From a virus: a DNA stretch of 64,000 nt. Positions 1 to 17,908 of this stretch are shown in pieces. The DNA lies in the IMG/VR virus record IMGVR_UViG_3300013233_000167, positions 1 through 64,000 of that record; one strand, written 5' to 3'. The position numbers and the translations under genes are program-made. Numbering within the stretch: position 1 is the stretch's first letter; each line of letters opens with the position of its first letter. A model generated the notes under the pieces. That model had not been told where the DNA came from. It was given only the letters and a program-made list of their open reading frames with translations, and did not search any database.

Positions 1-174
1 TATCTGCCCGGTGTCGGCGTCGCTCCACGGAAGGGCCTGTCCGAGAGGCTGGCTCGCAATCTCTTGGTCGAGCTGCGGCGGGATCAGGACGCCGTTCACC
101 TCAACGATCCTCGTTCCGAATCCAAACACCCCTCCCAAGGGGGCGGTTTTGACGATGCGTGAAGGGCAAGACAT
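1..174 (-). CDS. hypothetical protein, 5' part (runs off the window start)
   Basis: ATG at 174 with AAGGAG 6 nt upstream; frame stays open to position 1 (MSCPSRIVKTAPLGG...). Confidence 0.6.
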   Translation of the reverse strand, partial: MSCPSRIVKTAPLGGVFGFGTRIVEVNGVLIPPQLDQEIASQPLGQALPWSDADTGQI

Positions 175-267
175 GAACAACTCCTTGGACTCTAGGCGCG
201 CATACGATCACACAACTTCTCGATTAGCTTGATTAGCTTGATTCGACAGGAAGCAAACCTAATGCGT

Positions 268-972
268 CTAAGGTCGCTTGACCCAAACGGGGCTGATCGA
301 AATGCTCGCCACGTCGAAAAAATGCGTCATGGGCCAAGCATGACCATCCGGCCAGTGAGACACCTGCCAGTCGATGTCGAGAACCACGGCCACCTCAGTA
401 CCGGGTGCCGTACCGGGTATCCAACTGGGACTCAGATCGTCGTATTGGAACGGTCCGGGAGGACTCGAAGATCCAGGTCCCCAATAGACCGTCTGATCAC
501 CGGCCGCGTAGGCAGATTCCCAAGTATCGGTGTCCAAATACTGAGCAGGAGTCGCCGGTGCCGTCGGCCCCCAGTTGGTGATCGCCTGACTCGTCCAAGC
601 CCATCCAGCAAAGTAGATTCCCGGAGGCGATTGTCCCAGCGGAAGGTCAGCGGGCTCGAAGCGAAGCTTGATCTGAGCACCGTCCCAAACGGCGGGCGGC
701 GCGTAAGGAATTCCAGGATGCGACACGCTAGAACGATTCTGTCCACCCGAGACGACCTGACCGTCGAGGGTGTAACGCACGCGCAACACATAGGCGGACG
801 AATCATCTCCGTCCGGGAGCGGAGGGATCTTGAAAGTACCGAGCGCCTGATCCCCGTAGACGCGGCCCTGGAAAGCAAACGCGGGGCGCTGCGTCTGCGT
901 TGCGCCAGAGAACTGAGAAGTAAACAACACGGAGGCAACGAACGCCGCGATGGCTATGTAGCTAGGTTTCAT
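268..972 (-). CDS. putative secreted protein, Pro/Trp/Gly-rich
   Basis: Likely start MKPSYIAIAAFVASVLFTSQFSGA resembles a Sec signal peptide. Confidence 0.65.
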   Translation of the reverse strand: MKPSYIAIAAFVASVLFTSQFSGATQTQRPAFAFQGRVYGDQALGTFKIPPLPDGDDSSAYVLRVRYTLDGQVVSGGQNRSSVSHPGIPYAPPAVWDGAQIKLRFEPADLPLGQSPPGIYFAGWAWTSQAITNWGPTAPATPAQYLDTDTWESAYAAGDQTVYWGPGSSSPPGPFQYDDLSPSWIPGTAPGTEVAVVLDIDWQVSHWPDGHAWPMTHFFDVASISISPVWVKRP

Positions 973-1152
973 GTTTGGGTATTCGGGTAGGTGTTTTGGT
1001 TCATGGCCTATGAGCGAGACGCGCGCAGGCATTCAATCGTGCAGTAAGGGCCTGTGCTGTTCTGACCGTACCACTTCATGCCCACGACGCGCATCACAGC
1101 CCCACAGTGTTGGCACCAGCCTTGCGAGGGGGAGAATCCCGAGCTGTTTTCG

Positions 1153-1434
1153 TCAGGGTGTCTCACAGGGCCAGTCTACAAAGTGTGGGTATCGAGCGCA
1201 GCACGCCCCACAGAAAAGCTCCCAGCTCGCAGGCAACCGACCACGGCGCATGATCTCGTCCCACAGCGCCTCCGGCTTCCCGCGCCGCACGATGCGCACG
1301 GTGCTGCAACCCGCGCACGTCAGCCGCAGAGACTTGACGCGCCGAACACCGCGCGAGATCAGCCACGCGCCCTCATCTGATATCGGGTACACCGACGGGA
1401 CGATACAAGGCGAAGAGCGTGCGGACGAGCGCAC
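1153..1434 (-). CDS. small Cys-rich hypothetical protein (CxxC...CxxC)
   Basis: CAGC and CGAC pairs; start uncertain. Confidence 0.4.
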   Translation of the reverse strand: MRSSARSSPCIVPSVYPISDEGAWLISRGVRRVKSLRLTCAGCSTVRIVRRGKPEALWDEIMRRGRLPASWELFCGACCARYPHFVDWPCETP

Positions 1435-1576
1435 GATCAGCAGCCGTGAGACGCCGCTTGATAGCCGTGAGCTGAACGCGGTGATCGTGCTGGAGCGTAG
1501 CGTGTCGGATCAGCCACCACAGACGCCTCTGATCCGGGTCTCGACTGAGCGATCTGGAGAAGCTCAGCAGGTTCAT
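1373..1576 (-). CDS. hypothetical protein
   Basis: MNLLSFSR start overlaps the stop of the upstream ORF (ATGA). Confidence 0.45.
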   Translation of the reverse strand: MNLLSFSRSLSRDPDQRRLWWLIRHATLQHDHRVQLTAIKRRLTAADRALVRTLFALYRPVGVPDIR

Positions 1577-1863
1577 CCGCCGACCATCCCTGTGCGGTCC
1601 TCGATCCTCTGCGCCAGCCACTCGACCCCACGCTCCGCGAGTGCAGGGTCGGGACGCAAAGGGCGTCGATCTACGGCGGGCAATCGCTCGTCTCGTAGGG
1701 AGGGAGTGTGACCCCCCACGACAGCGAGTCTGGAAACTGGTGCTTTCAGGTCGTTTCGTGGACCCAGGTATCCGTGAGGGAGCCCCATCTCGATCTCCAT
1801 TAGACGCCACGGCATCACTCGGCCCAACGACCTATACAGCGTGCCCTCCATCGCTTCCACCAC
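1573..1863 (-). CDS. hypothetical protein
   Basis: Packed in the co-directional gene run. Confidence 0.45.
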   Translation of the reverse strand: MVEAMEGTLYRSLGRVMPWRLMEIEMGLPHGYLGPRNDLKAPVSRLAVVGGHTPSLRDERLPAVDRRPLRPDPALAERGVEWLAQRIEDRTGMVGG

Positions 1864-1870
1864 CTGAGCA

Positions 1871-2476
1871 TCACACCGCCTCCGTGGACTGCGTGTCGCG
1901 GACCGGGGTGTTGGAGATGCTGCCGTCCTTCCCTCCTCGCAAAGAGTGAGCGCAACCGTCGCTAAGGCCCACGAGCGCGTCGCGCCAGGCTTCAGCTTTC
2001 TCTACTGGAATCTGCGCGCTGTAGTGGCTGTTGATCGCGCCAATGCTCACCTTCCGGGACCGGCTGATCTTGCTCAGCGCATCGCCCAACGCCGCCTCTA
2101 GTTTCTCGATGCGCTTCTTGTCATCGCTAAACTTTCTGCGCACGCGAAGGGAATAGTCTACATATTCAGAAAATGGAGGCGGATCCGCAAGTTCATCATC
2201 CGATGCACCAATATTCCGCATGTGGTCCTTCCAAGGGATGCGCTCTGTTTCGAACACGTCGCCCAGCACAACCCCGAAGCAAATATTAGTCACCGACTCG
2301 TCCCAACCATCACCAGCGGCGAGTCGGAATTCCTCCAACTCTGTTGCGGCTGCATCCTCGGCCTCGGCGCATGTTTCGTGTAGGTCGAAGCCTGTCTCGG
2401 GCGAATATGAGAAATAGACATTGGCCATAGTTCCGATCAACGTCAGTTCCGCTTCTTCTACTGTGTCGTCAGGCAT
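1871..2476 (-). CDS. phage hypothetical protein
   Basis: Likely start MPDDTVEE; globular acidic composition (YFSYSPETGFDLHET). Confidence 0.65.
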   Translation of the reverse strand: MPDDTVEEAELTLIGTMANVYFSYSPETGFDLHETCAEAEDAAATELEEFRLAAGDGWDESVTNICFGVVLGDVFETERIPWKDHMRNIGASDDELADPPPFSEYVDYSLRVRRKFSDDKKRIEKLEAALGDALSKISRSRKVSIGAINSHYSAQIPVEKAEAWRDALVGLSDGCAHSLRGGKDGSISNTPVRDTQSTEAV

Positions 2477-2511
2477 CAGCCTTGCTCCTCGTATTTCTCG
2501 GATCCACGCCG

Positions 2512-2901
2512 TCACTGAACGCCGCTGATGACAATCGAGTTCGAGAGGTTGAATCCGTTGGTGGTCGCGTCCCGATACCACGCCTGCGCGGTGGAGCCTG
2601 CGGGCGGCAGGTCGAACGTCGCAGCACCCGTGCCGTCGTAGACATTGGGGGACGACCGCTGCGCCGCTCCCAACAGGACGCACAGCTCGCCGTCACCAAA
2701 CGGGATCGGGTCTCCGAACGCACCGTTTGAGTAGATGACGATGCAGGTAGTCATCGGTGGACCTCCGAAGCTCTGCAACGAATCCGGGGTCTCGGCCAAC
2801 GTGGCTCCCGGTCCCGCACTGTTGGGGCTCGTGTCGCATTCGGTAGCGAGAGCACAGGGGAGCGTCGCGGCGAATAGGCAAAACAGGATGAAGTTTCTCA
2901 T
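2512..2901 (-). CDS. secreted protein made of a stand-alone planctomycete-type C-terminal domain
   Basis: Signal peptide MRNFILFCLFAATLPCALA followed by CxTSPNSAGPGA...PFGDGELCV...QAWYRD...GFNLSN. Confidence 0.7.
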   Translation of the reverse strand: MRNFILFCLFAATLPCALATECDTSPNSAGPGATLAETPDSLQSFGGPPMTTCIVIYSNGAFGDPIPFGDGELCVLLGAAQRSSPNVYDGTGAATFDLPPAGSTAQAWYRDATTNGFNLSNSIVISGVQ

Positions 2902-2950
2902 TTCTGATTGGGGTTGAAGGGTTGTTGGAAAAGAAAGTGAATCGCAGTCG

Positions 2951-3442
2951 TCACGCGCTCGGGGAATCCTCGGGCGTCTGGTCATGCGGCGGCTCCTCGG
3001 TGGGCTCTGAGAACACATCAGCGAGCACGCGCCCCACAGGCGTCAGGGCCGTGATCTCGCGCCCGTACCACTGCTCGCGCGCCTTGAGGGCGCGGTCGTA
3101 CGTGGCGAGGCAGCCCGTCAGGTACTCAGCGAGGATGAAGTCCGGGGTGTCGGACCCGTTCTCGGCGCAGTGCCGGTTGATCGTCTTCTCGAACTCGGCC
3201 CGCATCTCGTGGCGCTCGGGCGCTGATCCGGCCAGCCAGTTCGAGACCTGCGTGAGCTTGCCATTCAGGTCGTCGAGGCGTTTCTCTGGGTCGATGTGGT
3301 CAAGCATCGAATCGACCTGTGCGTTCGCAGCAAGGTCGTCTTGGATCGCCGCCTCGTAGGCGGCTATGCTCTCGGGGCTCTCCTGCTCGCCGCTCCGTAC
3401 CATTGAGCGGTAGAGCGCCAATGCTTCTGTGATCTTGGTCAT
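2951..3442 (-). CDS. phage hypothetical protein
   Basis: Start MTKITEAL overlaps the upstream stop; contains ENGSDTPDFILAEYL. Confidence 0.7.
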   Translation of the reverse strand: MTKITEALALYRSMVRSGEQESPESIAAYEAAIQDDLAANAQVDSMLDHIDPEKRLDDLNGKLTQVSNWLAGSAPERHEMRAEFEKTINRHCAENGSDTPDFILAEYLTGCLATYDRALKAREQWYGREITALTPVGRVLADVFSEPTEEPPHDQTPEDSPSA

Positions 3443-3666
3443 CGGTTCGTCGGTAGGTTGAGCTGGCGGAGGTCCGTCTCGACGTGGGGATCCCACTCGT
3501 GCTTGACGGCTCGGGCCAGCAGTTCTCGGGTGAAGATGAGTTCCTGCATGATGGGATGCTCGGTGCAGACGCGGATGTGGGCTTCGAGGATCTCTCGGGG
3601 GATCGGCTTCGCGCCCACGTACTTCTCGCCACAGAACGCGCAGTTGAGCTTCTCGTGCTCAGTCAT
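3439..3666 (-). CDS. small Zn-finger-like protein
   Basis: CAFC...HIRVC..HP. Confidence 0.65.
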   Translation of the reverse strand: MTEHEKLNCAFCGEKYVGAKPIPREILEAHIRVCTEHPIMQELIFTRELLARAVKHEWDPHVETDLRQLNLPTNR

Positions 3667-4078
3667 CCCGCGCCTCCATGTCGAAGCCCTCGGTCGTCAC
3701 GTTGATCTTGATCCCAGGAATGCGCACGGTGTCGCCCGCGCTGACGTACAGGGTGTTGAAGGTGAAGTCGCCTCCCCCTCCGTGCAGGCTCGCACGGAGC
3801 GTGCACACGTTCCGCCCGGTGCCGAGGTCGCTGACCAGCACCTCCTTGATCCACCCCGTTCCGCACAGGTCGAACTCGATGACGCCGCGCTCACCGTCGC
3901 GCGGGTGTGATTCACCGCGACCAATCAGCACGTTCGCGTCCGAGAAGAGCTGGATCTCCAGGTGCGAGTCCTCAAAGCCGCGCTCGGCCGCCTCCCGCAC
4001 AACGATGGGCGGAGCTGCCGCGACGGCGACGGCCGCCGTGCAGAGCTTGAGGAAGTCACGGCGGAGCATTACCACCAA
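3659..4078 (-). CDS. hypothetical protein with twin-arginine (Tat)-like leader
   Basis: LRRDFLK followed by an Ala-rich hydrophobic stretch. Confidence 0.6.
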   Translation of the reverse strand: MVVMLRRDFLKLCTAAVAVAAAPPIVVREAAERGFEDSHLEIQLFSDANVLIGRGESHPRDGERGVIEFDLCGTGWIKEVLVSDLGTGRNVCTLRASLHGGGGDFTFNTLYVSAGDTVRIPGIKINVTTEGFDMEARDD

Positions 4079-4154
4079 TCTCCATTCGTTGCGCAGTCGT
4101 GCATCACGCAGAGCACGAGCACCGCCAAGCTGCCGTAGATGAGCACGCTGAGAA

Positions 4155-4592
4155 TCATCGCTTCGCCAACCACACGTTCATCGGGATGTTGTAGTGCAGC
4201 ACGCCTCCTGGCGAGAGCTGCGCCATGCGAAACTTGCCCTTGAAGCCGGACAGCTCACCGAAGAGCCGCTGCACCGTCTTGTCAATCACGGACGCGGCGA
4301 CATAAACGGCCGGTATCTGAGGCATCCGCTCCAAGATCTCCTTGTAGATCGGCAGCTCGGTATCGTCGTGCAGACTCGCCGAGACGTGCACGCCCTCGTG
4401 CCGGTCCGGGCCGTACAGGTCACGACTCACGATCATCCGAATCCCCACCGCGAAGTCGAAGACATGCCGCTGTTGCGCGCCCGGCCGTCCGTCGCCTTCC
4501 GTACCGTCATACGGTCCTGCGTCGATCGCCTCTTGGAAGCGGGCGCGCATCGTGTCGAACGACTCGTTGTTGAGGGGTACGGTCGGCATCAC
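4155..4592 (-). CDS. hypothetical protein
   Basis: Coupled ORF with typical composition. Confidence 0.65.
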   Translation of the reverse strand: MMPTVPLNNESFDTMRARFQEAIDAGPYDGTEGDGRPGAQQRHVFDFAVGIRMIVSRDLYGPDRHEGVHVSASLHDDTELPIYKEILERMPQIPAVYVAASVIDKTVQRLFGELSGFKGKFRMAQLSPGGVLHYNIPMNVWLAKR

Positions 4593-4789
4593 TTGGCTAC
4601 ATGGGCGCGTACTATGCAGTCCTTGGCTTCGAGGAGCTTACGCAGACCCACGGTCGTCTCGGCGTTGCTGGGGGCCGACGTGGCGATCTGATGCGCTAGG
4701 TCGTGGAACGGCTTCGACGTGGCTTGCAGGTGCTCGGGAAGATGCTCGTATGCGAAGAACTGGAGGAGTGCTTGGGTTGCGGGGTGCAT
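4589..4789 (-). CDS. small helical phage protein, candidate Acb2/Tad1-hairpin-like
   Basis: FFAYEHLPEHLQ..SKPF..LA...GLRKLLEAKDC.VRA is a widespread phage family; the link to sponge proteins is tentative. Confidence 0.6.
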   Translation of the reverse strand: MHPATQALLQFFAYEHLPEHLQATSKPFHDLAHQIATSAPSNAETTVGLRKLLEAKDCIVRAHVAK

Positions 4790-5220
4790 TACTTGGCCTT
4801 GGATTTCAGGGAGGACTTCTTCTTGCGGGCGATCTGGACGGACTCCGGTTGGAGCGCGTCGTCGTCGCTCACCTTGGTCATGCAGTCGGGCTCGTGCATC
4901 GCCTTGAGCGCCACGTCACCGTACTTGAGGTCGTGGCCCGCATACTGACCGAAGATCACCCGGTCGCCAACCTCGACGCTCAGCGGCACGCGCTCGCCCG
5001 ACAAGGGAGAGCGTGCACCGGGTCCGCGCGCGACCACGGTGCCGGACTGCGCCGTCATGTTCTGCGTCGTGGCCTCGGGCAACAGAATGCCGCCGCTCGT
5101 GACCTTCTCGGCCGTGTCGAGCGCCACGATCACCACGTCGTTGAGGGGCTCGAAGAGCCGCACGATCTTCTTGAGGTCGTCCGGCGAGATAGGGGTGATT
5201 TCAGTCAGTTGATTGGTCAT
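4789..5220 (-). CDS. groES: co-chaperonin GroES
   Basis: PLNDVVIV, mobile loop TSGGILLP, GTVVARGPG, VEVGDRVIFGQYAG. Confidence 0.95.
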   Translation of the reverse strand: MTNQLTEITPISPDDLKKIVRLFEPLNDVVIVALDTAEKVTSGGILLPEATTQNMTAQSGTVVARGPGARSPLSGERVPLSVEVGDRVIFGQYAGHDLKYGDVALKAMHEPDCMTKVSDDDALQPESVQIARKKKSSLKSKAK

Positions 5221-5227
5221 CAGAGAG

Positions 5228-5698
5228 TCATAGTTGCGGTGGGTACTTGGCGTTGCCGTCGTAGATAGGTCCGTGGAGGTCTTTAGACGCTCCCGGATTC
5301 GTGGTCGGGAACGGCATCCACGGATGGCCGAGCCACGCGATCAGTTCCTTGCCGACGCCCTCGGGGTCTTGGACGAAGGCTTCGTAGCTGACCAGCTTCA
5401 CCGGAGCGTCGAGCGCCACGACAGCGTTGAAGACGCCCTTGCGACACGCGGCCTCCGGCCATGCTCCCGGTTCGAGGTTGATCTTCTTCATGCTCAGCAC
5501 CCGCACCCTCGGGTTGCGGACCGGGATGATGAAGCGCGTGTTGCCGGTCTCGAACACCGGGGCAGGCTCGCTGCCGTGCCAGACCGTGCACTTCTCCCCC
5601 TGCCAGTTGGGGTCGCGGCGACGCTGACGAATGCAGCGCAGCACCATCGCCCGAATGACGTGGTTACCGGAGCGCGGGAGTCCACAGATCAGGATCAC
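5228..5698 (-). CDS. sulfotransferase-family protein (compact)
   Basis: 5'-PSB loop GLPRSGN, 3'-PB motif IPVRNP, VSYEAFVQDP...LIAWLG. Confidence 0.75.
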   Translation of the reverse strand: MILICGLPRSGNHVIRAMVLRCIRQRRRDPNWQGEKCTVWHGSEPAPVFETGNTRFIIPVRNPRVRVLSMKKINLEPGAWPEAACRKGVFNAVVALDAPVKLVSYEAFVQDPEGVGKELIAWLGHPWMPFPTTNPGASKDLHGPIYDGNAKYPPQL

Positions 5699-5726
5699 GA
5701 CGCGATCCTGGACGCTGGGTCCAGCC

Positions 5727-5752
5727 TAGAAAGAGGCCCTCGCGGGGCCTTA
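5727..5752 (-). terminator. putative intrinsic terminator
   Basis: Minus strand AGGCCC-CGCGA-GGGCCT followed by CTTTCT, in the gap after the 5776 ORF. Confidence 0.45.
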
Positions 5753-5775
5753 GATGGCGTTTGTCGCACGGGCTC

Positions 5776-6051
5776 CTAGGTGTGGGGGTTCAGAACCGTA
5801 GGGCCGTTACACTCGGGGAGCCCTCCCGAACTGACATCAGGATCTCGCTTCTCGTAGCTTATTTTCGGCAGGTCTCCACGCAACCGAGCAGCAGCCTGCT
5901 GAGCAGCCAGCTCATCGTCGCCGAAATCCCAGACAGCACGGTCGTCCACGCAGCTATCGGCTTCTCTCCCAACCACTTCGGCAGCGCGGATGTGCAGATC
6001 CTCGTCCTTGTGGATAAATGTAGTGATGTACGTCACGAATGATTTCCTCAC
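5776..6051 (-). CDS. hypothetical protein
   Basis: Coupled ORF. Confidence 0.55.
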   Translation of the reverse strand: MRKSFVTYITTFIHKDEDLHIRAAEVVGREADSCVDDRAVWDFGDDELAAQQAAARLRGDLPKISYEKRDPDVSSGGLPECNGPTVLNPHT

Positions 6052-6488
6052 GTTTCAGAGGAGGGCTTCTTCGGCCCTCTGTTTCGGATATAGCCCGCCA
6101 TTCCTTCGAGGAACTTGGGCACCTCGGCCGCGTCCATGCTCGACACGTAACTCGCCAGAGCCTTATCGTCTTGATCGACGCCGGGCTCACCGAAGCGGGT
6201 CACGAGAAGCACGAATCCACGCCGACTTGGTAGACGGCGATCAATCTCCATCGCCAATGTTTGCAGCACCGCCTCCTGCGCGATGTCAGCAGGGACCGGC
6301 GTGGTGTGCGCGTTCAACTTGCAGCCGCTCTCCTTCGTGGGAGTCTCTCCGATGCAGCTATCGAGACGCTTCCCGCAGTAGTGGCACTTATGCGCACGCT
6401 TGCAGTCGCGGCGGCGCACCGACTCCTCGAAGATCGCGTCGTCGTTGTACTCTTCGAGTTCAATGGGGAGGTCAATGGGGTAACTCAT
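6048..6488 (-). CDS. hypothetical protein, Cys-rich N-half
   Basis: Start MSYPIDLP overlaps the upstream stop; CHYC and further Cys residues. Confidence 0.6.
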   Translation of the reverse strand: MSYPIDLPIELEEYNDDAIFEESVRRRDCKRAHKCHYCGKRLDSCIGETPTKESGCKLNAHTTPVPADIAQEAVLQTLAMEIDRRLPSRRGFVLLVTRFGEPGVDQDDKALASYVSSMDAAEVPKFLEGMAGYIRNRGPKKPSSET

Positions 6489-7174
6489 GCGAGAGTCCTC
6501 ACGCGCACACGCTCGCGCTCGATGTACCAGACCGCCTTGGCGAGATCTCGGTCGTGCTCTTCTCCGGGCTTGAGCCCTGCGCGCCACACGTACTTCATAG
6601 CCGCCGCGATGTTCGCGGTCATGTGCTCATTCACGTCGGTGCACTCGATCCCCGCAGGGTGACTGCAATAATGTGCGGGGTGATTCACAGGGTCGGATAC
6701 TTTTGCAGAAGCTCCTTCGCCCACGCGACCAAATCGACCACCCGCGAACCTGTTCTCATCTTCAGCCTTCTCAAGCAAAGTGAACCGTACCGATGCGTCG
6801 GCCATCGGTTCCGCGCTGTACTGCAACTCACACGGCGTTTCGCGGATCTCAAACTCCGCGAGAACTTTGCCGTCCTGCACAAGACGCACCCAGGATGCGG
6901 GCTTGCCTTCAATCTCATCGACAACAACAGCCGTAGTCGCAGAATCATGCAGCGGCGCAGAGAGCGGATCCGGCTGCTTGTCCTCCTCACGACAACGCCT
7001 GAACGCAATGCCCGCGCGCGCAAGGGCTCCCTCTATATACCGCGCGCGAGCCTCCGGCAAACACGCCTTGCTGTGCCCGAGGGTTTCGGTGCGGTAGCAA
7101 CAGCCATAGCGGCTCTCTGCGCCTTCGTCCCCGCTCTTCTCCAGCGGGACACCTAGTTCATATATCTGGGTCAT
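6485..7174 (-). CDS. DUF3310-domain protein
   Basis: C-terminal DPVNHPAHY...IEC...KYVWRAGLK...DLAKAVWYIERE; GGAGG RBS. Confidence 0.85.
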   Translation of the reverse strand: MTQIYELGVPLEKSGDEGAESRYGCCYRTETLGHSKACLPEARARYIEGALARAGIAFRRCREEDKQPDPLSAPLHDSATTAVVVDEIEGKPASWVRLVQDGKVLAEFEIRETPCELQYSAEPMADASVRFTLLEKAEDENRFAGGRFGRVGEGASAKVSDPVNHPAHYCSHPAGIECTDVNEHMTANIAAAMKYVWRAGLKPGEEHDRDLAKAVWYIERERVRVRTLA

Positions 7175-7246
7175 GCTCGATACCTCCCCGAACGATGATC
7201 GGGATAACGGAGGAGCCGCACTCAGGGGGGCGGCACGGACTCCCCC

Positions 7247-7288
7247 TCACGACATCGCGGTTAGTCCATCACGACATCACGGTCAGTC
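7247..7288. repeat. tandem 20-bp direct repeat with 22-bp period (operator-like)
   Basis: tcacgacatcgcggttagtc / tcacgacatcacggtcagtc, 18/20 identical, intergenic. Confidence 0.65.
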
Positions 7289-7356
7289 TAACAGCTAAAC
7301 GTAGCCTCGACAACGCTAGATCGTCGCATTTCTCCCAAAGCGCCGAGAGGCGCGGT

Positions 7357-7773
7357 TCAGCGGTCCCCGGCGGCCTTCTTGGCGGCCTTCTTGGCGGGCT
7401 CGATCCCCTGACCACGCAGGACGCTCTCCAGGTCCATCTGAACGGCGCTGAACGCCTCATCGGCGTCCTCACCCGCATACGTGGTGGTCGGCTCCACAGG
7501 CTCCTCTGTGGACTCATCGACCCCTGCCAACTCCGCAGGGATGTCGTGGGTAGGGCCGCCGTGCTCGTGGAAGAACAGCACCACCATGTCCTGCATGGTC
7601 TTGCGGATCTCACGCAGCTCCTCATCCTGGCGAGTGTCCTCCTTCGCGTCGGATTCCAACGCGGAGACACGAGAGACGAGTTCGATATGACTGACTGCGA
7701 ACCAGCTCGCTATGCCGATCACCGCCGTCCCAAGGGACGTGAGCATAGCTTTGGTAGAGACGTTGACTTGCAT
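7357..7773 (-). CDS. membrane-anchored coiled-coil protein
   Basis: N-terminal TM segment (LTSLGTAVIGIASWFAV) followed by a coiled-coil. Confidence 0.7.
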   Translation of the reverse strand: MQVNVSTKAMLTSLGTAVIGIASWFAVSHIELVSRVSALESDAKEDTRQDEELREIRKTMQDMVVLFFHEHGGPTHDIPAELAGVDESTEEPVEPTTTYAGEDADEAFSAVQMDLESVLRGQGIEPAKKAAKKAAGDR

Positions 7774-7776
7774 GGC

Positions 7777-8337
7777 TCAGTCCTTGCCGAGTGTTTCAAT
7801 CGAGAGATCGCAGACGGGCGCGATATTGACAGCGTAGACCATGAGCCCGATCGGCGTCGGCTTGCCATTGTAGATCGGGATCTTCCACGCACGGAAAGCG
7901 CGATCCTCGCCACCCCAGCGCAACGTCGTCAAGTAACCGTACATGCCTTCGCCGGTGCGGATCACCACGGCGTCATCGGCGCGACACCGCGCTACTTGTT
8001 CAGCCGGGTAGAACTCGTCCGGCAAGTGCCCCACCATGTCGGACGGCGTGAGATCGAAACCCTTTGCCGCGTACTCGTTCACGCGAAGGTAATGGCTGTC
8101 CAACGACTTGAAGACGAGAAGCGCGGGGATGAAATGGAAGAGGCGCTCCAGCTCGTAGACGGCTTTGTCACGCGCTTCTTCGGCCGCTATGCGCGCGCTC
8201 TCCGCGCGTTCGAGGCGCTCGTCAAGCCCCCGAGCTTCGTAAAGGATCCGTTCGGATTCGTTACGCCCCGTGCGCAAACGGAGCACGGACGGACGTTCAC
8301 CGACATGCCTACGCACTACGCTCTCGATAAGACCCAT
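7777..8337 (-). CDS. stand-alone PAS-domain protein
   Basis: Coiled-coil then LFHFIPALLVFKSLDSHYLRVN...MVG...FYPAEQ...DDAVVIRTG...KIPIY...GLMVYAVNI, a PAS_4-like pattern; GGAGG RBS. Confidence 0.85.
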   Translation of the reverse strand: MGLIESVVRRHVGERPSVLRLRTGRNESERILYEARGLDERLERAESARIAAEEARDKAVYELERLFHFIPALLVFKSLDSHYLRVNEYAAKGFDLTPSDMVGHLPDEFYPAEQVARCRADDAVVIRTGEGMYGYLTTLRWGGEDRAFRAWKIPIYNGKPTPIGLMVYAVNIAPVCDLSIETLGKD

Positions 8338-8338
8338 A

Positions 8339-8614
8339 TCACCTCCCCCCTACGTTGCCGTTTGAAGACTCCACGCGCTCGATCTCGTGCGCTGCCGCTT
8401 TCACAACAGAGCTGACCACGTACGTCGAGATCGTTCCGCCGACAAGAACCAACACGCCTACGAGCAGGCCAACCTTCACGACCAACACGCCCATCTGCAC
8501 GCGGATCTCCATGATCGCGTCTTCGAGCGCGTCCTGGCGTCGATTCGACGACTCCATGTGCGCGATAATGAGCTTCCGGTAGTCCTGGAAGCTGCCGTCC
8601 TGTTCGTCGCTCAT
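8339..8614 (-). CDS. small membrane protein (holin-like)
   Basis: Coiled-coil followed by one long hydrophobic segment. Confidence 0.65.
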   Translation of the reverse strand: MSDEQDGSFQDYRKLIIAHMESSNRRQDALEDAIMEIRVQMGVLVVKVGLLVGVLVLVGGTISTYVVSSVVKAAAHEIERVESSNGNVGGR

Positions 8615-8769
8615 TTAGTCTGGTCACCTTGCTCGAAGCCGCAGTTATACGAGCGCGAGGCCCGTCACCGACGAGATGTAAGTCCCGTCTGTGACGGGTT
8701 GATGTCGCGGACCCACAAGGACCGCTCAGAGAACTCTCCGAAGCGCAAGCGCCTCGTCGAACGTGCAGA

Positions 8770-9198
8770 TCACGGGGTCGGGGGCGAAGGGGGGGCATCG
8801 CGCATCTCCGACTTCGCCATTCCTCGGGAGATCGTGTAGCTGAGCGCGATCGCCGTGACGGCGAACACGAGCGACATCTTCACGGACTCGGGCATCGGCA
8901 CGTCGCCGCCCTTGAGCATGTCGAGCAGCACGGGGGTCACTCCCAAGCCAGCAGCTCCCGCCGACAGCTTGAACTCAGTGGACTTCAATCCCGTCGAGGG
9001 AGTGCCGTCACCGTTTCGAGTTTCCGTCTTCGCCATGCCGCGTGAGACGTTGTAACCGACGACCATGAGAGTAACGCAAGCGATCAGCGTCATCACCATC
9101 TTCTCGGACATGCCGTCGCCACCTTTGAGCATCTCCATCATTACGGGTAACGCGCCAAGCACGCCAGCCGCTCCGGTAATCTTGAGTTCAGATTTCAT
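8770..9198 (-). CDS. holin-like membrane protein with internal duplication
   Basis: Two ~65-aa repeats (KS.E.K..GAAG...MLKGGD..M.E...Y..SRGMAK.E.R), each with two hydrophobic segments. Confidence 0.7.
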   Translation of the reverse strand: MKSELKITGAAGVLGALPVMMEMLKGGDGMSEKMVMTLIACVTLMVVGYNVSRGMAKTETRNGDGTPSTGLKSTEFKLSAGAAGLGVTPVLLDMLKGGDVPMPESVKMSLVFAVTAIALSYTISRGMAKSEMRDAPPSPPTP

Positions 9199-9291
9199 CG
9201 AATGACCTTCGTTCGGGTTGTGATGCAGTCTCGACCGATGGTCCGAGGAGAGCCCCGCCCAAAACAGTCGAGCGGGGCCGTGTGAAGCCGA

Positions 9292-9951
9292 TCAGACCAA
9301 CAGCAGTGCGTTGAGCAGGAAGCCAGCGGCCTTCTGCGTTACGGACGCCTGGAGGGAGTTGATGATCCCCGCTTCGGCGACACGCTGATCTGCGAACTCC
9401 GCGATCGTGTCGGCGTTGGCCTGCATGGCCGCCGCCATCGCCAACGGAGTCATGCCCCGGTACAGCTCCTTGAGCCTACCGCGCGACGATCCACTGAGCC
9501 GCGTCTTGACCGCGCCGATCGCGGTATCGACGGCCATGAACGCCAGCGGCGCTTTCCACGCCTCCAACCAGTCGTCGAGGTCTTCCGGCACCTCGCCGTT
9601 AGGGGGCAGCGTACCGGGCACCACGTCATCGACCGGCGGGTTCGCCAGCAGGTCCATGATGCGGTCGTAGCCCACGTCACCCAGGGAAGCCACCACTTCG
9701 GTAGCAGCCGGTGCTGCGGGGCTGGAATCAGTTTCAGTAGCGGCAGGCTCCTCGGTGCCGCCGGATCCCGCAGTCTCGGTTTCGGTAGCAGCCGGTGCTG
9801 CGCTAGGAGTAGTGGCACCGGCCACCGCCTCCGCCTGCGCATCGTTCCAACCGGCCGTCCAGTCCGCGTTGTCAGTGCCGCCCGAGAAGGGGTTCTCCGT
9901 CAGGGCAGTTCCGGCTGCGTGCGCAGCCTTGCCGTCATCGTATGCGCTCAT
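9292..9951 (-). CDS. hypothetical protein
   Basis: NPF...W.AGW N-terminal motif, Ala/Thr/Pro linker, helical C-terminus. Confidence 0.7.
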   Translation of the reverse strand: MSAYDDGKAAHAAGTALTENPFSGGTDNADWTAGWNDAQAEAVAGATTPSAAPAATETETAGSGGTEEPAATETDSSPAAPAATEVVASLGDVGYDRIMDLLANPPVDDVVPGTLPPNGEVPEDLDDWLEAWKAPLAFMAVDTAIGAVKTRLSGSSRGRLKELYRGMTPLAMAAAMQANADTIAEFADQRVAEAGIINSLQASVTQKAAGFLLNALLLV

Positions 9952-9957
9952 GTCCTG

Positions 9958-10263
9958 CTACTCCGTGGGTTGCGGAGCGGGCGTCGCCGTCTCCGGGTTG
10001 TAGAAGCGATCGAGCTGGTCCCACGCGGCCTTGTCCGCCGCGATCACCCCGAGGATGGCTGCGCGATTCACGCTGCCATCCGGGTTCGTCCAGTTCGGAT
10101 CGTTCTCGGTGATGGATTCGATCGCGCTCTCCAGCAAGAGAGCTTGCGACGTGGGTACGGCCTGCAACTCAGCAGGCGTCATCGCAGACGCCATCGTGCG
10201 ACAGCTCGTTAGGCCGAGCAGTAGAAAAGCACTAATGGCGCAAGAGTAAAGTACGTTCTTCAT
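9958..10263 (-). CDS. lipoprotein (possibly spanin-like)
   Basis: MKNVLYSCAISAFLLLGLTSC lipobox; AGGAG RBS. Confidence 0.75.
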   Translation of the reverse strand: MKNVLYSCAISAFLLLGLTSCRTMASAMTPAELQAVPTSQALLLESAIESITENDPNWTNPDGSVNRAAILGVIAADKAAWDQLDRFYNPETATPAPQPTE

Positions 10264-10288
10264 AGGTTCTCCTTGTGAAAGGTTTCGA

Positions 10289-11662
10289 TCACGCAGTCTG
10301 CTTGATCCCTCGATGGTAGGCCGAACAAGCACCATCCAACGAGAGACGAGCATTGTAGGCTCGATGTGTATTAGTTACGAACCATGTGGCATCACCTACC
10401 TCCGACTTCCACACAGCGGGTGTCTCCTCACCGTTAGGACCATGATGCCAAACCGCCTTGCGATCCATAACTTCACTGCGCTCATCGTCCGACAGCCGCA
10501 CCTTACCTCGTTTGAGCACATTCATCGCTGGCACGCGGACCTTCTCGTCCACGAACCTCACCGGACCGAGGCCCGGGGTCGCGTCTAAGTAACGGTGCAG
10601 GGCGCGAGGGTATTCGAGCAAGGGCTCGACCTCCACTTCCGTGACGGTCGCGCGCACCGTGGGGTTGTGTCCCCACGTACGCAGCGCGATTAGCTTTCGA
10701 GACGCGCATCCCGTCTCGTCGATCAACGGCGCGTTGTTACGGCGCGTCCGTTCGATGAACGTCACGACCTTCCGACAACGCTCCCACGTTTCGTCCGTCC
10801 ACTCTCGGAGTGGAGTCGCCTTCATGCTAAGCACGTATCGCGCGGCCTTCTTGCCTTCGAGCAACGGACCGCGCTTGGAACGTCGCGTCGTGGCGATCGC
10901 TTCGCGCAGTGCGGACGACCGCAGATGTGCTCGCAACTCACCGGCTCGCATGTTCACAAGCCGTTGGAACTTCTCGTATAGCTGCGCACGGTCACGACTC
11001 AGATCCGCCTCGGATCCGCTGCGGTTCCGCTGCGGTAAGTGCGCGGGACGCCAGTGCTCTTCAAGATCCGGTGCCTCCCAGATGTCGAACGTCTCGAACA
11101 ACTCAAACGCATCGTCGCCTTCCAAAAAATCGAGCCACGCTTCGTCGATCGACTCCTGAGCGCCACCACCAGCATCCGCTCCCTGCGGGTCCTCAGCGCC
11201 CGTCTGCGATCCGGGTCTCTCGTCATCGGCGGGCTCTTCGGGCGGAGGCTCTTCGCCTCCCGGGGCAGCCGGAACCGTAGGCTGGTCAGGGTCGTCCACA
11301 ATACCGGGAGAACGTACCTCGCCGGTCGGCGTCACGATCAGGGTCTTGACCTTGAACTGACGCTTGGTCTTCGACATCGCGGTCGGCGATTCGTCACCCA
11401 CCGAGATGCGCATGTCGTAGTACGCCTGGAGGTCGTCGCGGTAGAAGGGCGGATCGTCCATGCGATCGTCCGTCTCCGGCTCCTGCGGGGGCGGTCCCTC
11501 ACCGTCCGGCGGACCGTCCTCTCCGTCTCCGGGCTTCGGCTTCTCCTCGTCGTCTGCCTTGGGCTTCTCGTCCTTGCTCTTGTCGTCCTTAGGCTTCGGC
11601 TTCTCCTCGCCGTCCTTTTCGGGCGGCCCCGTCTCCTTCTTCTTGGAGGCGGGGCTTACGCC
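10289..11662 (-). CDS. -1 frame extension of the large acidic protein, with a DUF3140-like domain
   Basis: Open from the slippery site to 10289; LVNMRAGELR...KVVTFIER...LRTWGHNP resembles DUF3140. Confidence 0.8.
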   Translation of the reverse strand, partial: GVSPASKKKETGPPEKDGEEKPKPKDDKSKDEKPKADDEEKPKPGDGEDGPPDGEGPPPQEPETDDRMDDPPFYRDDLQAYYDMRISVGDESPTAMSKTKRQFKVKTLIVTPTGEVRSPGIVDDPDQPTVPAAPGGEEPPPEEPADDERPGSQTGAEDPQGADAGGGAQESIDEAWLDFLEGDDAFELFETFDIWEAPDLEEHWRPAHLPQRNRSGSEADLSRDRAQLYEKFQRLVNMRAGELRAHLRSSALREAIATTRRSKRGPLLEGKKAARYVLSMKATPLREWTDETWERCRKVVTFIERTRRNNAPLIDETGCASRKLIALRTWGHNPTVRATVTEVEVEPLLEYPRALHRYLDATPGLGPVRFVDEKVRVPAMNVLKRGKVRLSDDERSEVMDRKAVWHHGPNGEETPAVWKSEVGDATWFVTNTHRAYNARLSLDGACSAYHRGIKQTA

Positions 11663-11668
11663 TTTTTT
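11626..11668 (-). other. programmed -1 ribosomal frameshift signal
   Basis: In-frame A-AAA-AAG (11668-11662), 6-nt spacer GCGTAA, hairpin GCCCCG-C-CTCC-AAGAAGAA-GGAG-A-CGGGGC. Confidence 0.85.
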
Positions 11669-13749
11669 CCGTCGCCTTCTTCGTCAGCGGCCTCGTACGC
11701 ACGACGCGACGCCGCGCCAGGGTGATCGGATTCCGTGGTGAAGTACCGCTTGAAAATCTGGAGCGCCATCTGCTCGCCGCTCAAGCGCGAAAGGACCAAG
11801 AAAAACATGAGCGAAGCGTTGCTCGGGACTTCTTGAAGGTAGCTGTGGAGCTTCGGGTACACGCGCGCGAGGTTACGCAGGAAGATCTGGAACGCTCTCT
11901 TCGGCTGCCGCGACACCACGTCTTGTGCGTCCGGGATCGCGGAGGCGTCGTCGGCGTTGAGGCCGAAGAACTTGGGCAGCGCCTCTCTCGGGATCGACGC
12001 GATGGCCTTCCGAGTACGCTTGAACACCGCGTCCTGCGGACCCTTGAAGTCGGGCATCTCCCTCTTGAACATCCGCAGCGCCTTGCCCGAGACCTTGAAC
12101 GCGCCCTTGCGTGCGGGCTTCTCCTCTCTGTCGAATCCGAGCGTTGGCGTCTCCTTCTGCCGCTCGATCAGCTCACGCGACAACGAGCCGAAGACTCCCA
12201 TGCGGAGCTGGTGCCAATGCTCGCTGCCCTGCTCCACGTCGGGGTACTGCTCGTCCACCATCTCGCCCGCGCGCTCCAACAGGGCGTCGCGTTCGTCTCG
12301 TTCATCAAGCGCCTCCAAACGCTCGCTGTTGTTCTCCTCGATGAGCGTATCGCGCTCGTCCGTGTGCTCGGTCTCTCCCTCAATGAGCGTCGGGCGCGCG
12401 CACGGGACTCCACACTCAGCCGCGTAGTCACGCAGGTACGACTCGACCATGAGGTCGCGTTCGGCGGGAAGCTCCTCGTACATCTCGCCGAGTGCCGCGA
12501 TCCCTTCCAGAACTTCATCGTACGGATGGGGCACCACCCATGCGGCATCGCGCACCGACACGACCGTCTGGCCGTCCTCGTGCACCACGCCCCACGCGCC
12601 GTAGTCCGAGCTGACCGCTTGGGCCTCTTCGTCCACGGCGTCTTCCACTCCTTCCGACAGACCTTCCTGACGCGCCTCCCACGAGTCACACGTCATCTCC
12701 GGTCCGACACCGTATGCGTACAGCGTGCAGTAGTAGTCATCGCCATGCTTGGCGCGGTAGTAGCGACACATCGCGCACGCACCGTGCGCAGTCTCACCAT
12801 CACCGACGATGCGATAGTTGCGCGGGCGCTGCGGAGCTTTGTCGTACTCGACGTACGCCTCATCGAGCGACTCGACCTCGGGCATCCACGTCCGTTCGTC
12901 TTCCGATACCCAGGTTATGCCGTTCGGGTCTTTGACGCACGCGCCATCGTCAACGCTCACCAACGTCTCGAAGATGTCGTCACCTGCGACCACGCAAAGC
13001 GCCGCGCGGCTGAGTCCGCCTTGTTCGCACACCGCGTCGTACTCATCGCGCGAGTCCGGTAGCAGTGACTCCATGCTCTGCTTCACGCCCGGCAACTTCA
13101 CATCACCGCTATTCTCTCCGCTCGGCTTGTCGGTCTGCAATTCCGGATCCTTCTGCTCCTTCGCGGATCCGGTCGCCGTGCAGTCGAGGATCGTGAACTC
13201 GAACGTCTCTTCTCCGTTGTGCTCGCCCGCTTCGATCAGCTTCTCGAACGTCGTGAACCCCGCGATGCCCGCGCGCATCTTGCGCACCTCTTCGGAGTTG
13301 ATCTTTCCCTCGAAGATAGCGAGGTACTTGTTGCCCTTCTCCAACACCGTCTCGACGAACCGCTCGAAGAGATGTCCGCTCGACTTGATGATCCAACCTT
13401 CCATCTGCGTCGCGGCGACGCCGTTCTTAGAACGTGAGTATTCGGGACGCTTATTGATGAAGTGCGTGGCGAACGCGCGCACATCCTTACGATCAACCTC
13501 TTTCGCGTCGTCCGGGTTTCCGCTTCCATCGGTCGCGTGTGTGTGTTGTGCAGCGAACTCCAAGATCGCGCCGACGTATCCCGGGTGGTGCTTGTTCTCG
13601 TCCTCGGGGATCGCGTCGGGATCGAGCTGGAAGAGCTTCTCTTCGAGACCCTCGCGTCCACGGAGCGCCTTGGTGGCCTTGCGGAATGACTCGCCAATCT
13701 TACGAGCGGCGAACAGGGTGCGTTGATACGTTTTCTTGAGCGAAGACAT
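11656..13749 (-). CDS. large acidic multidomain protein, putative internal head/virion protein (697 aa; about 1153 aa with frameshift)
   Basis: Start MSSLKKTY with GAGGAG RBS; many L/I-x-E motifs; Cys cluster CAMC...C...CDSW. Confidence 0.75.
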   Translation of the reverse strand: MSSLKKTYQRTLFAARKIGESFRKATKALRGREGLEEKLFQLDPDAIPEDENKHHPGYVGAILEFAAQHTHATDGSGNPDDAKEVDRKDVRAFATHFINKRPEYSRSKNGVAATQMEGWIIKSSGHLFERFVETVLEKGNKYLAIFEGKINSEEVRKMRAGIAGFTTFEKLIEAGEHNGEETFEFTILDCTATGSAKEQKDPELQTDKPSGENSGDVKLPGVKQSMESLLPDSRDEYDAVCEQGGLSRAALCVVAGDDIFETLVSVDDGACVKDPNGITWVSEDERTWMPEVESLDEAYVEYDKAPQRPRNYRIVGDGETAHGACAMCRYYRAKHGDDYYCTLYAYGVGPEMTCDSWEARQEGLSEGVEDAVDEEAQAVSSDYGAWGVVHEDGQTVVSVRDAAWVVPHPYDEVLEGIAALGEMYEELPAERDLMVESYLRDYAAECGVPCARPTLIEGETEHTDERDTLIEENNSERLEALDERDERDALLERAGEMVDEQYPDVEQGSEHWHQLRMGVFGSLSRELIERQKETPTLGFDREEKPARKGAFKVSGKALRMFKREMPDFKGPQDAVFKRTRKAIASIPREALPKFFGLNADDASAIPDAQDVVSRQPKRAFQIFLRNLARVYPKLHSYLQEVPSNASLMFFLVLSRLSGEQMALQIFKRYFTTESDHPGAASRRAYEAADEEGDGKKA

Positions 13750-13868
13750 CGCGTCTCCTCGTCGCGGGGTTGCGGGCAGAGGCGAAGGGGGAATCCCAAC
13801 AGCCATAGAATGCCACGCGACGAGGTGCACGTCTACAGGGCAGGTCCGTCTGGACCCAGCGTCCAGGA

Positions 13869-14387
13869 TCAGCCCCCGAGGGGTCTCCCGGCGTGGTCGA
13901 TGAGCTGCTGAGCCGCGCCCGGACCGACGACAGCGAGGCGACTCTGTTGCGCTTGGCTCCACTGCGCGAACTCACGGCGGAAGCTCTCCTCCGCCTGCGC
14001 GGCACCGCGCTTGTTGAACTCCTCGAACTTCTCCCACGCCTCCGCGACCGTCTCCACGTAGATGTTGAATCGGTACTCGCGGCGAACCTGACCCATGCCT
14101 TGCGGCGGCGGGGGCGTGTTGGCAGTCAGCATCCCGAGCCCCTGGAACTTGCTCCACTTCTCCGGCGGAGAACCTTCCGTGATGTCGAACTCGATCATGC
14201 TGAGGCGGCCCAGCTCGCGGCCCGTCTCGGGGTGGCAGTCGTAGCGATGATGAACAGTCTCGCGCACGCAGAAGCGCAATGGCTGGTTCACCGCCACGTC
14301 AGCGGAACCGGCCTGAGAGGACACGCTGCCTTCGATCTGTTTGCTAGGGCCTTTGGGTGCTTCGTCGGTTTCTTGGTCGTCGGTCAT
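13869..14387 (-). CDS. hypothetical protein
   Basis: AGGAG RBS; coherent ORF. Confidence 0.7.
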   Translation of the reverse strand: MTDDQETDEAPKGPSKQIEGSVSSQAGSADVAVNQPLRFCVRETVHHRYDCHPETGRELGRLSMIEFDITEGSPPEKWSKFQGLGMLTANTPPPPQGMGQVRREYRFNIYVETVAEAWEKFEEFNKRGAAQAEESFRREFAQWSQAQQSRLAVVGPGAAQQLIDHAGRPLGG

Positions 14388-14400
14388 GTGGTTCTCCTAG

Positions 14401-14874
14401 TCATTTCTTCCAGTTGGTTTGGACCACGAGGCCCAGATGTTCTTGTTCCCACTCTAAGCGCTTCTCGATCGCAAGACGACGTGCACCCCGCACTCCATTC
14501 GCTGCCACCGAGTAGCTAGTATGCAAAACTCGACCATTCGCACGCAAGTAAACGTGGAAGTCGTCGTAGTCCACGGCCCGCCCATGACGGTTCACCGTCT
14601 TCCTACGGGTCACGCCCGATGGCAAGTTGCCCTTGGTGCGCTTCCGACCCACCGGCCACCGAAAACATTGCGCCGGTCCTAACTTCTCCCGCGTCTCTTC
14701 GACCCACTCCCTAGCGCACGCTTTTCCCTTACAAATACTACGGTTACTCGCATCGCCGAACCACTTCGAGTAACGCTTTCCGCTTCGCATCACACGCGCG
14801 TACCACCCATGCTGTGATCGCCAACGGCCATTTGACTGTCGGTACTCTTGGTCTATCCGCAAGACGCCGTTCAC
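14401..14874 (-). CDS. tandem AP2-like DNA-binding protein
   Basis: GV.R...GWYARV...K.F and SGVTR...S.S....G...ARRLAIEKR, two AP2-like beta-sheet/helix units. Confidence 0.65.
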   Translation of the reverse strand: MNGVLRIDQEYRQSNGRWRSQHGWYARVMRSGKRYSKWFGDASNRSICKGKACAREWVEETREKLGPAQCFRWPVGRKRTKGNLPSGVTRRKTVNRHGRAVDYDDFHVYLRANGRVLHTSYSVAANGVRGARRLAIEKRLEWEQEHLGLVVQTNWKK

Positions 14875-15278
14875 GATGCAATAACCGGATCGAACGCAGA
14901 CATGTGCGCAGCCGCGATGTCATACAAGCGCTCCACCACACGCTGAAAAATCAGCGCGCTGTTCCGGCCGCAGAAGTGAAGCTGATAATCGTCACCCTGC
15001 CCAACCGTAAGATCCATGCAGCCGTCCCACTTCAACGACCCATACATGAACACTTGCGCGTCGTCCAACCCGGTCGAGAAGGTCAACGGAGAGTCGGCCC
15101 CCTGTTGCGTGAACTGCACCGGACCCTTCCCGTTGACGGGACCTGCGACGATCTCCAATATCACGTAATTCATCCAGCGCGTGCCGATGCAGCAGAACAC
15201 GACGAACTCATCCTTCAAAGTCGCTTCATCCAACGGAGGAAACGCTCGCGGCATCTGGCTAGGCGTAAGATCTAACAT
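14871..15278 (-). CDS. hypothetical protein
   Basis: Start MLDLTPSQ overlaps the thyX stop. Confidence 0.65.
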   Translation of the reverse strand: MLDLTPSQMPRAFPPLDEATLKDEFVVFCCIGTRWMNYVILEIVAGPVNGKGPVQFTQQGADSPLTFSTGLDDAQVFMYGSLKWDGCMDLTVGQGDDYQLHFCGRNSALIFQRVVERLYDIAAAHMSAFDPVIAS

Positions 15279-16441: not shown

Positions 16442-16486
16442 TAGAATGACCTCCTCGATGAGAAGGGAATGGGGAGCGGTCTAGTC

Positions 16487-17200
16487 TTATTCGACGCGGG
16501 GTCCGAACTCCAGGAAAGCATCGTGGACGCGGACGGCGAAGTCGCCTTGCGGATCGCTACCCAGCTCTTCGGCCAGGTATCCCACGACCTCTTCGTCCAC
16601 GATGCCGATCGCCATCTTCGGATCCATGCAGCGCGCCACGAACGGGCACGGTCCCGCAAAGTCCTCCACCTGAGAAGCGTGCTGCACGTACATGATGAAA
16701 ACGGTGTCGCCGTCCTCGTCCATGTCCGGGTTGATGCGCATCCCCACGAGCGTCAGCAACGCACTCGTCGGTCCCGCATCCTCCTCGGGCAGCGGCGTCG
16801 TGATCCACTGACGGAGCTGGTCCATCACGGTCGCGCGGTTGAACGCTGCGATCTGCATCTGCGTACCCTGCACCGCCTTGTGATAGGTGAGCATGAAGCC
16901 GCCTTGCTGAATCAGCTTGCCCTCCTTGACGCGCAGCACCTTCGAGATGTTGAAGATGCTGCCCTGAATGACCGTCGCCTCCGGCCACGCATAGTCAACT
17001 CCCCGCTTTATCTGGGGAGCACTTGACAGGTCGGACGGTTCGGGTTGTCCGAGGAACATGTGCACGGCCGTCGCCACCTCGCTGCTCTCGCGCGCGACGA
17101 GCGGCGTGCCAGGAGGGACGACGCACACAAATCCTCCTTCGATGCGCTGAACGTGCATCGAGCTGAACGGAGGTGTACTTGAGACGATTTCGATATTCAC
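16487..17200 (-). CDS. hypothetical protein
   Basis: Coupled ORF with AGGAG RBS. Confidence 0.7.
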   Translation of the reverse strand: MNIEIVSSTPPFSSMHVQRIEGGFVCVVPPGTPLVARESSEVATAVHMFLGQPEPSDLSSAPQIKRGVDYAWPEATVIQGSIFNISKVLRVKEGKLIQQGGFMLTYHKAVQGTQMQIAAFNRATVMDQLRQWITTPLPEEDAGPTSALLTLVGMRINPDMDEDGDTVFIMYVQHASQVEDFAGPCPFVARCMDPKMAIGIVDEEVVGYLAEELGSDPQGDFAVRVHDAFLEFGPRVE

Positions 17201-17592: not shown

Positions 17593-17908
17593 CGGGGTCC
17601 TCTTGGATCAAGCGGATGCAGTGATGCACGCCGTCGAGTCGCTGAATCGTTCGGTCCAGCTCCTCTTGATGATCTTGCAGCCACAAGCATCCGCACTCGT
17701 GACAGTAGATCGAGATCGAGGCGCTACGACCACTCCCTGCTGTGAGCTTGAGCCTGCGGCCCTCTGGCAGCTCCTCACAGCCCGCGCACGGCTTCTTGTG
17801 CCGCGTCGTCACGTCCTCGACCTCGATCCTCAAAGGTCCGTGGAAGAGGCCGTAGTGCTTCGGCTGAATGCGCTTGTTGCGGGGCTTCACGACACGAAGA
17901 CTCCGCAC
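17582..17908 (-). CDS. Zn-finger hypothetical protein
   Basis: CAGC...CHEC. Confidence 0.6.
   Translation of the reverse strand: MRSLRVVKPRNKRIQPKHYGLFHGPLRIEVEDVTTRHKKPCAGCEELPEGRRLKLTAGSGRSASISIYCHECGCLWLQDHQEELDRTIQRLDGVHHCIRLIQEDPDGD

Follow-up and report, generated by a model that had tools for sequence, protein, structure and literature searches.

Some small phage proteins carry export signals and act at the surface of the host cell: Llp of T5 and Cor of phi80 and N15 are exported lipoproteins that block the receptor FhuA. Phage genes that borrow a protein-sorting domain from the host also appear, by analogy, to be of a kind already known. The nearest published parallel to the gene described here is found in the 'Cryophage', in whose variable genes cargo is followed by T9SS type A sorting domains (Bellas et al. 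2020, Nat Commun 11:4403, PMC7468147); its authors proposed that host secretion is hijacked, perhaps for superinfection exclusion (PMC7468147). The T9SS type A C-terminal domain (CTD; PF18962 / TIGR04183) is a small Ig-like sandwich that forms the very C-terminal end of many secreted proteins, otherwise unrelated, in one lineage. We found no cultured phage of Planctomycetota in the literature.

The gene that we describe shares features with each of these systems. It occupies positions 2512..2901 on the minus strand (stop codon included) of the window, which is the 64-kb stretch of a 74,460-b IMG/VR virus record that was analysed, and its translation and family matches identify the product as a single-domain protein of 129 amino acids, P0001. 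We are highly confident that this protein consists of a signal peptide and a lone, uncatalogued Ig-like beta-sandwich domain of about 110-130 amino acids, which in each genome of one lineage of Planctomycetota forms the very C-terminus of between 75 and more than 150 secreted enzymes, and that it belongs with the copies of two other phages to a shortened, cargo-free subfamily. What is new is that a phage encodes a cargo-free copy, that such copies recur in three phage lineages and that they belong to a distinct, shortened subfamily. Like the Cryophage genes, this one yields a phage product bearing what appears to be the C-terminal sorting domain of a host lineage, whereas the Cryophage proteins have real cargo (endoglucanase, GH39, PA14), the Por_Secre_tail domain and a known Bacteroidota machinery. 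Like Llp and Cor, P0001 is small and has an export signal, but on inspection it has no lipobox L-[AS]-[GA]-C (T-L-P precedes Cys16), and Llp and Cor are lipoproteins with a specific receptor. The domain is present as a single copy in the whole virus record.

The record, which CheckV estimates to be about 53% complete, has a GC content of 61%, and the window encodes a portal, a terminase, a family-A DNA polymerase, DnaB, SbcC, a UvsX-like recombinase and SSB. This gene set, taken with the completeness estimate, indicates a large tailed phage with a genome of roughly 140 kb. No tRNA gene was found in the phage sequence. The available half or so of the genome contains no integrase, so lysogenic conversion is unsupported.

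The translation of the gene opens with M-R-N and continues through a hydrophobic stretch of 16 residues and A-L-A to T-E-C. Residues 1-19 (2845..2901, minus strand) read as a predicted Sec-type signal peptide with a signal peptidase I site after A-L-A19, and in all close relatives the signal peptide likewise stops right ahead of the first conserved cysteine. No further domain separates the signal peptide from that cysteine, and P0001 therefore has no passenger. The mature part, residues 20-129 (2515..2844, minus strand), amounts to about 110 amino acids and forms, according to the AF2 model and the conserved columns, one beta-sandwich domain. The first-pass annotation had described a motif series placed directly behind a signal peptide, without a passenger, and every element of it can be seen in the 129-residue translation of 2512-2901: C-D-TSPNS-A-G-P-GA, PFGDGELCV, QAWYRD and GFNLSN. 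The domain stops two or three residues ahead of the stop codon, and the C-terminal end of the protein, ...NLSNSIVISGVQ, falls within a beta-strand of the predicted fold. There is no terminal hydrophobic helix, which sets the protein apart from the short C-terminal sorting signals of the PEP-CTERM, LPXTG and GlyGly-CTERM types, where a short motif precedes such a helix and a basic tail.

The public call of the locus, P0002, is an 80-amino-acid protein that starts at Met50 and is identical to residues 50-129. A Shine-Dalgarno sequence, GGAGG (2762-2766), stands 7 nt upstream of the internal ATG of Met50 (2752-2754; the whole element spans 2752..2766 on the minus strand), and there is none ahead of the ATG at 2899-2901. 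We take the 129-residue reading to be the real form because family homology spans residues 20-49; a start at Met50 removes the signal peptide together with the earliest conserved motifs, so that automatic annotation hides the export signal of the protein as well as its place in the family.

As judged by sequence comparison, the domain is a real family and the similarity of P0001 to its members is well beyond chance. In a phmmer pass with P0001 over 1.84 billion representative proteins, E values of 5e-12 to a 139-amino-acid protein and of 2e-6 and 3e-6 to the C-termini of proteins of 325 and 554 amino acids were obtained. The matches at E <= 1e-3 numbered 14, namely the phage's own 80-residue call, one repetitive protein that we judged spurious and twelve real relatives. 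Seven of the twelve are short (128-165 amino acids, signal peptide plus domain), four are longer with the domain at the very end, and one has it at the N-terminus. BLASTP aligned P0001 with residues 405-537 of the 543 in P0004 (1e-16) and with residues 662-792 of the 795 in P0005 (1e-12), and a family HMM, in which P0001 was itself included, matched it at E 2.4e-23 over model positions 2-126 of 128. In a 94-sequence alignment two columns are invariant and nine nearly so; P0001 has the consensus residue at every one of them, and the retention of all these residues argues for selection. At least 97% of 195 domain sequences have a cysteine in the columns of Cys22 and Cys74, and the two residues probably form a disulfide. 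The family is absent from the catalogues that we searched: P0001 had no match in Pfam or NCBIfam at E up to 10, nothing real among the PHROGs and only chance matches by sequence in the PDB. The 94 family members gave no Pfam match at E <= 0.1 apart from one chance match to a lectin, and the C-terminal parts of two long relatives lay outside every Pfam and NCBIfam model.

In bacteria the domain hardly occurs outside Planctomycetota. When 185,579 species, each represented by one genome, were scanned for the pattern, 66 loci were confirmed, nearly all of them in planctomycete MAGs and the remainder labelled 'bacterium' only; one locus of the 66 bears the label Enterobacterales, which we take to reflect a mislabelled or mis-binned MAG. 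The genomes with matches are all MAGs, and the loci have GC contents of 60-73.5%. Every neighbour of the domain in a protein-language-model atlas was likewise from Planctomycetota, and the attribution of the domain to Planctomycetota in the first-pass annotation is thereby borne out.

That annotation had also placed the motif series at the end of many secreted proteins. When all ORFs of the matched loci were searched with the HMM, the stop codon was found no more than five residues away in 92 of the 96 bacterial copies, which upholds the description; as a general statement about position in host proteins it does not extend to the other four, three of which are N-terminal and one internal. Copies number from 75 to more than 150 in each of five genomes, in counts that were capped, and first-look candidates reach 508; the cargo is varied: glucose/sorbosone dehydrogenase (GSDH), reprolysin with LamG, subtilase, metallophosphoesterase and InhA-like MAM proteins, to which the atlas adds matrixins, esterases, NHL and YHYH proteins, all from Planctomycetota. 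With its extreme C-terminal position, its copy number and this range of cargo, the family appears to behave like a localisation tag. P0001 and the planctomycete tag proteins share a sequence family, a cysteine pair and the PFG-G-LC, Q-WYRD and NLS motifs, and both are signal-peptide proteins whose domain stops two or three residues ahead of the stop codon; P0001 differs in being phage-encoded, in having no passenger, in being shortened (about 116 against 132 amino acids) and in its want of the extra cysteines. In the N-terminal minority the tag domain directly follows the signal peptide (L022:3863-5287, L038 and L054, all three from one MAG, and P0022). It is succeeded at L022:3863-5287 by an FGE-sulfatase domain (E 2.5e-50), of the superfamily of T9SS GldK/PorK, and in P0022 by an M23 peptidase. 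Instead of being cargo, these proteins might serve the tag system as partners or adaptors.

The domain is unevenly distributed within the phylum. An even sample of Planctomycetota showed the domain expansion in 4 of 121 genomes, and within the class of one domain-rich genome (G001) strong matches occurred in 46 of 101 genomes and in none of the other 55; all four positives of the former sample recur in the latter. The ratio of 4/121 to 46/101 suggests that this class holds about 7% of the species of the phylum, and the domain would then mark about half of one minor class. A share of about 7% rules out Planctomycetia and Phycisphaerae, which account for 46% and 32% of a 1,425-genome survey (PMC11131199). 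The OM190 group of SILVA corresponds to the GTDB classes UBA1135, UBA8108 and GCA-002687715 (bioRxiv 10.1101/817700). The domain-rich class is compatible with a small uncultured class, the OM190-equivalent UBA1135 and UBA8108 being candidates, and the OM190-type label given in the first-pass annotation may or may not apply.

The idea that the cargo-free form is an invention of phages had to be given up, for bacteria encode signal-peptide-plus-domain proteins too. One such protein, of 154 amino acids, is the product of a chromosomal bacterial gene (L072:8241-8705, plus strand) with an ECF-sigma-like gene on one side and further ORFs on the other, and the ORFs inspected around it included no phage-like one; about thirty further short proteins of this architecture are scattered among host-type copies in the tree. 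The ECF-sigma-like neighbour (L072:4872-8015, minus strand) encodes 1,047 amino acids, with an N-terminus that resembles an ECF sigma factor joined to a long extracytoplasmic portion. Genuine signal-peptide-plus-domain proteins of 128-175 amino acids are common in metagenomes, and these, together with the 154-residue chromosomal example, would suit an explanation in which P0001 is a host-like housekeeping copy: an envelope filler, cap or adaptor with which the phage keeps or tunes the layer of tagged proteins. We consider this explanation unlikely; the phage copy stands apart from the bacterial short forms and groups with other phage copies in the shortened subfamily.

The phage members of that subfamily come from three sources. 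Two other large phages, unrelated to this one, encode stand-alone signal-peptide-plus-domain proteins: a copy of 152 amino acids on viral contigs of 107-152 kb with about 50% GC (L002 and L005), and a copy of 142 amino acids on a viral contig of 106 kb and a 38.5-kb fragment with about 42% GC (L003 and L004). The domain gene of L002 lies 1.2-3.6 kb upstream of genes for a phosphatase, a PRPP synthetase, a split NadV and an RNA ligase (L002:7594-11907). On the same 152-kb contig the domain gene is adjoined by two ORFs with hexapeptide- or pentapeptide-like repeats (L002:4634-5311 and 5353-5958). A FastTree analysis of 195 sequences united the three phage copies with six short metagenomic proteins (P0003, P0011-P0014 and P0019) in a clade of nine with a support of 0.83, a group that was named after this first tree and that involves long branches. 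An IQ-TREE mixture model applied to 76 sequences recovered the same nine together with one long-branch row (SH-aLRT 95), and monophyly of the nine was not rejected by the AU test (p 0.98). The domain in this subfamily has a median length of 116 amino acids against 132, does without the extra cysteines of many host copies and often reads LC-x-x-P where host copies have LC-x-G-G. Searches of the viral contigs with P0014 and P0012 produced nothing usable, and a search of metagenomes with the subfamily alignment added one 2.2-kb contig (L080). A signal-peptide-plus-domain ORF of 190 amino acids on that contig (L080:1619-2191; 42% GC) is of the short subfamily type and has an insertion near its C-terminus. 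The contig, on which the gene is flanked by AT-rich membrane-protein genes, may be chimeric or derived from a low-GC carrier.

Among the 101 genomes of the domain-rich class, the best matches to P0001 are the ends of long proteins with 42-51% identity, so the phage copy is not a recent capture. This distance bears on the proposal that the gene is a functionless hitch-hiker, a 3' fragment of a host gene that was gained by illegitimate recombination and is not yet lost. The start codon without a Shine-Dalgarno sequence fits such an origin, as does the failure to find a related phage locus through the adjacent upstream gene (2951-3496), which has no relative in the viral contigs. We nonetheless regard it as improbable: a fragment from the 3' end of a gene would not bring along a signal peptide set exactly ahead of the first conserved cysteine, the conserved residues are all intact, the identity to the nearest bacterial copy points to an old acquisition and two further phage lineages show the same architecture. 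Phages have thus taken up the bare domain at least three times, or else have received it through one spreading subfamily. As the domain tags a very large share of the secreted proteins of these bacteria, the recurrence of bare copies in phages argues for some activity of the domain by itself, perhaps binding or docking, beyond that of a cleaved address label. A bolder extension holds that the subfamily is entirely viral and that phages use its cargo-free proteins to occupy an undiscovered anchoring or sorting system in an uncultured class of Planctomycetota. We think it doubtful that this is so; if true, it would define a new kind of phage factor for surface remodelling or exclusion and would supply a ready-made probe for the partner of the system.

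Because the domain is essentially confined to Planctomycetota, a planctomycete host is the best reading for this phage, and we consider it probable; a host within the sampled domain-rich class has about an even chance of being correct. The whole basis of the host inference is the domain gene and the GC content, which is 61% in the phage and 60-73% in the domain-rich bacteria. The planctomycete host proposed in the first-pass annotation therefore stands in so far as it draws on these two features, but neither DNA matches nor the identity of P0001, nor the phage GroES and sulfotransferase-like genes, contributed any signal. When the DNA of window positions 1-20000 was compared with the 101 class genomes, the two candidates scored per genome were low-complexity matches only, and no spacer-like or prophage match was seen. 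The phage GroES showed 32-44% identity among the matches listed for 121 Planctomycetota, which were about equally distant and gave no host signal, and the sulfotransferase-like protein had no homologue in the class genomes. The GC contents of the other two phages (41-52%) are far below the 60-73% range, which means that the subfamily may not track the domain-rich lineage; it may travel among phages with hosts outside the sampled class. For this uncultured phage of about 140 kb, the domain nevertheless offers a host lead, to one minor and apparently uncultured class of Planctomycetota.

The reading that we favour, with a probability of roughly 35-40%, is that the bare exported domain occupies a docking site in the envelope of the infected planctomycete and so alters the cell surface. 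P0001 would be exported by Sec in the infected cell, with removal of its signal peptide, and the bare domain would then dock on the envelope partner that takes the tagged exoproteins of the host. By coating or occupying this surface site, the bound domain could change what the cell displays. Receptor masking or superinfection exclusion would be the likeliest gain to the phage, with displacement of exoenzymes as a side effect; alternatively, progeny might be kept from adsorbing to cells that are already infected. The gene would be an accessory 'moron' with a role outside the virion and outside replication. A docking module is preferred to a cleaved secretion signal because bacteria and phages both keep cargo-free versions and because a few copies are N-terminal. 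The cargo-free version, with its 110 well-folding residues, would be a convenient bait for pulling down the partner of the sorting or anchoring system.

The position, copy number and varied cargo of the domain also resemble those of a sorting signal, and an abundant phage protein of this kind might clog the sorting machine and stop the display of exoenzymes, as the first-pass annotation had envisaged. The structures that tie as best match to P0001 include the T9SS CTDs of PorZ and RgpB (Z 7.0 and 6.1). The tag domain and the T9SS type A CTD are alike in position and in their distribution over unrelated secreted proteins of one lineage, and may be alike in fold, but the tag domain is longer (110-135 against about 70-90 amino acids), has a conserved cysteine pair and shows no detected sequence relationship to the CTD. 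Five domain-rich genomes (G001-G005) yielded no candidate for SprA (TIGR04189) and no match to Por_Secre_tail (TIGR04183), in searches in which the controls were equally silent (for SprA, all 14 control genomes). The non-C-terminal location of 4 of the 96 copies sits poorly with a pathway decoy, and bacteria, which encode many cargo-free forms themselves, would on this account be jamming their own machine. We hold such a decoy to be distinctly unlikely and favour it less than docking and masking.

Structure prediction gives no indication of what the domain might bind. The AlphaFold2 model of P0001, made from a 94-sequence alignment, has a pLDDT of 90.2 and is an eight-strand beta-sandwich, which in this model appears to be a generic Ig-like fold and is uninformative on binding. 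In Foldseek searches of the PDB and BFVD, no structure matched the model at E <= 1e-3. Exhaustive structural alignment gave an Ig-like plateau at Z 6-7.2 on which hundreds of unrelated chains are tied, with none at Z 8, and the two T9SS CTDs lie within it (PorZ, 5m11: Z 7.0, rmsd 2.4, 78 residues aligned; RgpB, 5ag9: Z 6.1, rmsd 2.2, 65 residues aligned). The modelled fold is thus consistent with a T9SS-CTD-like module and does not single one out.

Ig-like domains are frequent on the structural proteins of phages, in capsids and tails, with Hoc as an example. The Ig-like fold of the P0001 model might accordingly suggest a protein that decorates the particle, as Hoc does, and helps it to stick to the host surface. 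We find this very improbable. The predicted N-terminal signal peptide is cleavable, no structural family of Pfam or PHROG was matched, and P0001 is the product of a small stand-alone gene, with the closest candidate for a structural gene (10289-13962) some 7.4 kb away.

Among the weak structural matches is BFVD A0A6J5L910 (E 0.17), a 240-amino-acid protein from an uncultured member of the Caudovirales that is annotated as 'Secretion system C-terminal sorting domain'. It may be a further sign that phages carry sorting domains of their hosts.

The genes that surround 2512-2901 also include some that appear to be directed to the envelope. On one side lies an ORF for a small predicted exported protein of 234-254 amino acids with an N-terminal hydrophobic signal (268-1032, minus strand), for which a search of the atlas with the 234-residue form gave no usable match. 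On the other side a predicted exported protein of 139 amino acids (3659-4078, minus strand) has a leader, RRDFLK, that resembles a twin-arginine signal. Accessory genes directed to the envelope seem to be clustered at this end of the phage genome. Somewhat further along, at 4789-5220 on the minus strand, is the gene for the phage GroES (Cpn10, E 6e-20), which has distant relatives in the viral contigs and bears extensions at both its N- and C-termini.
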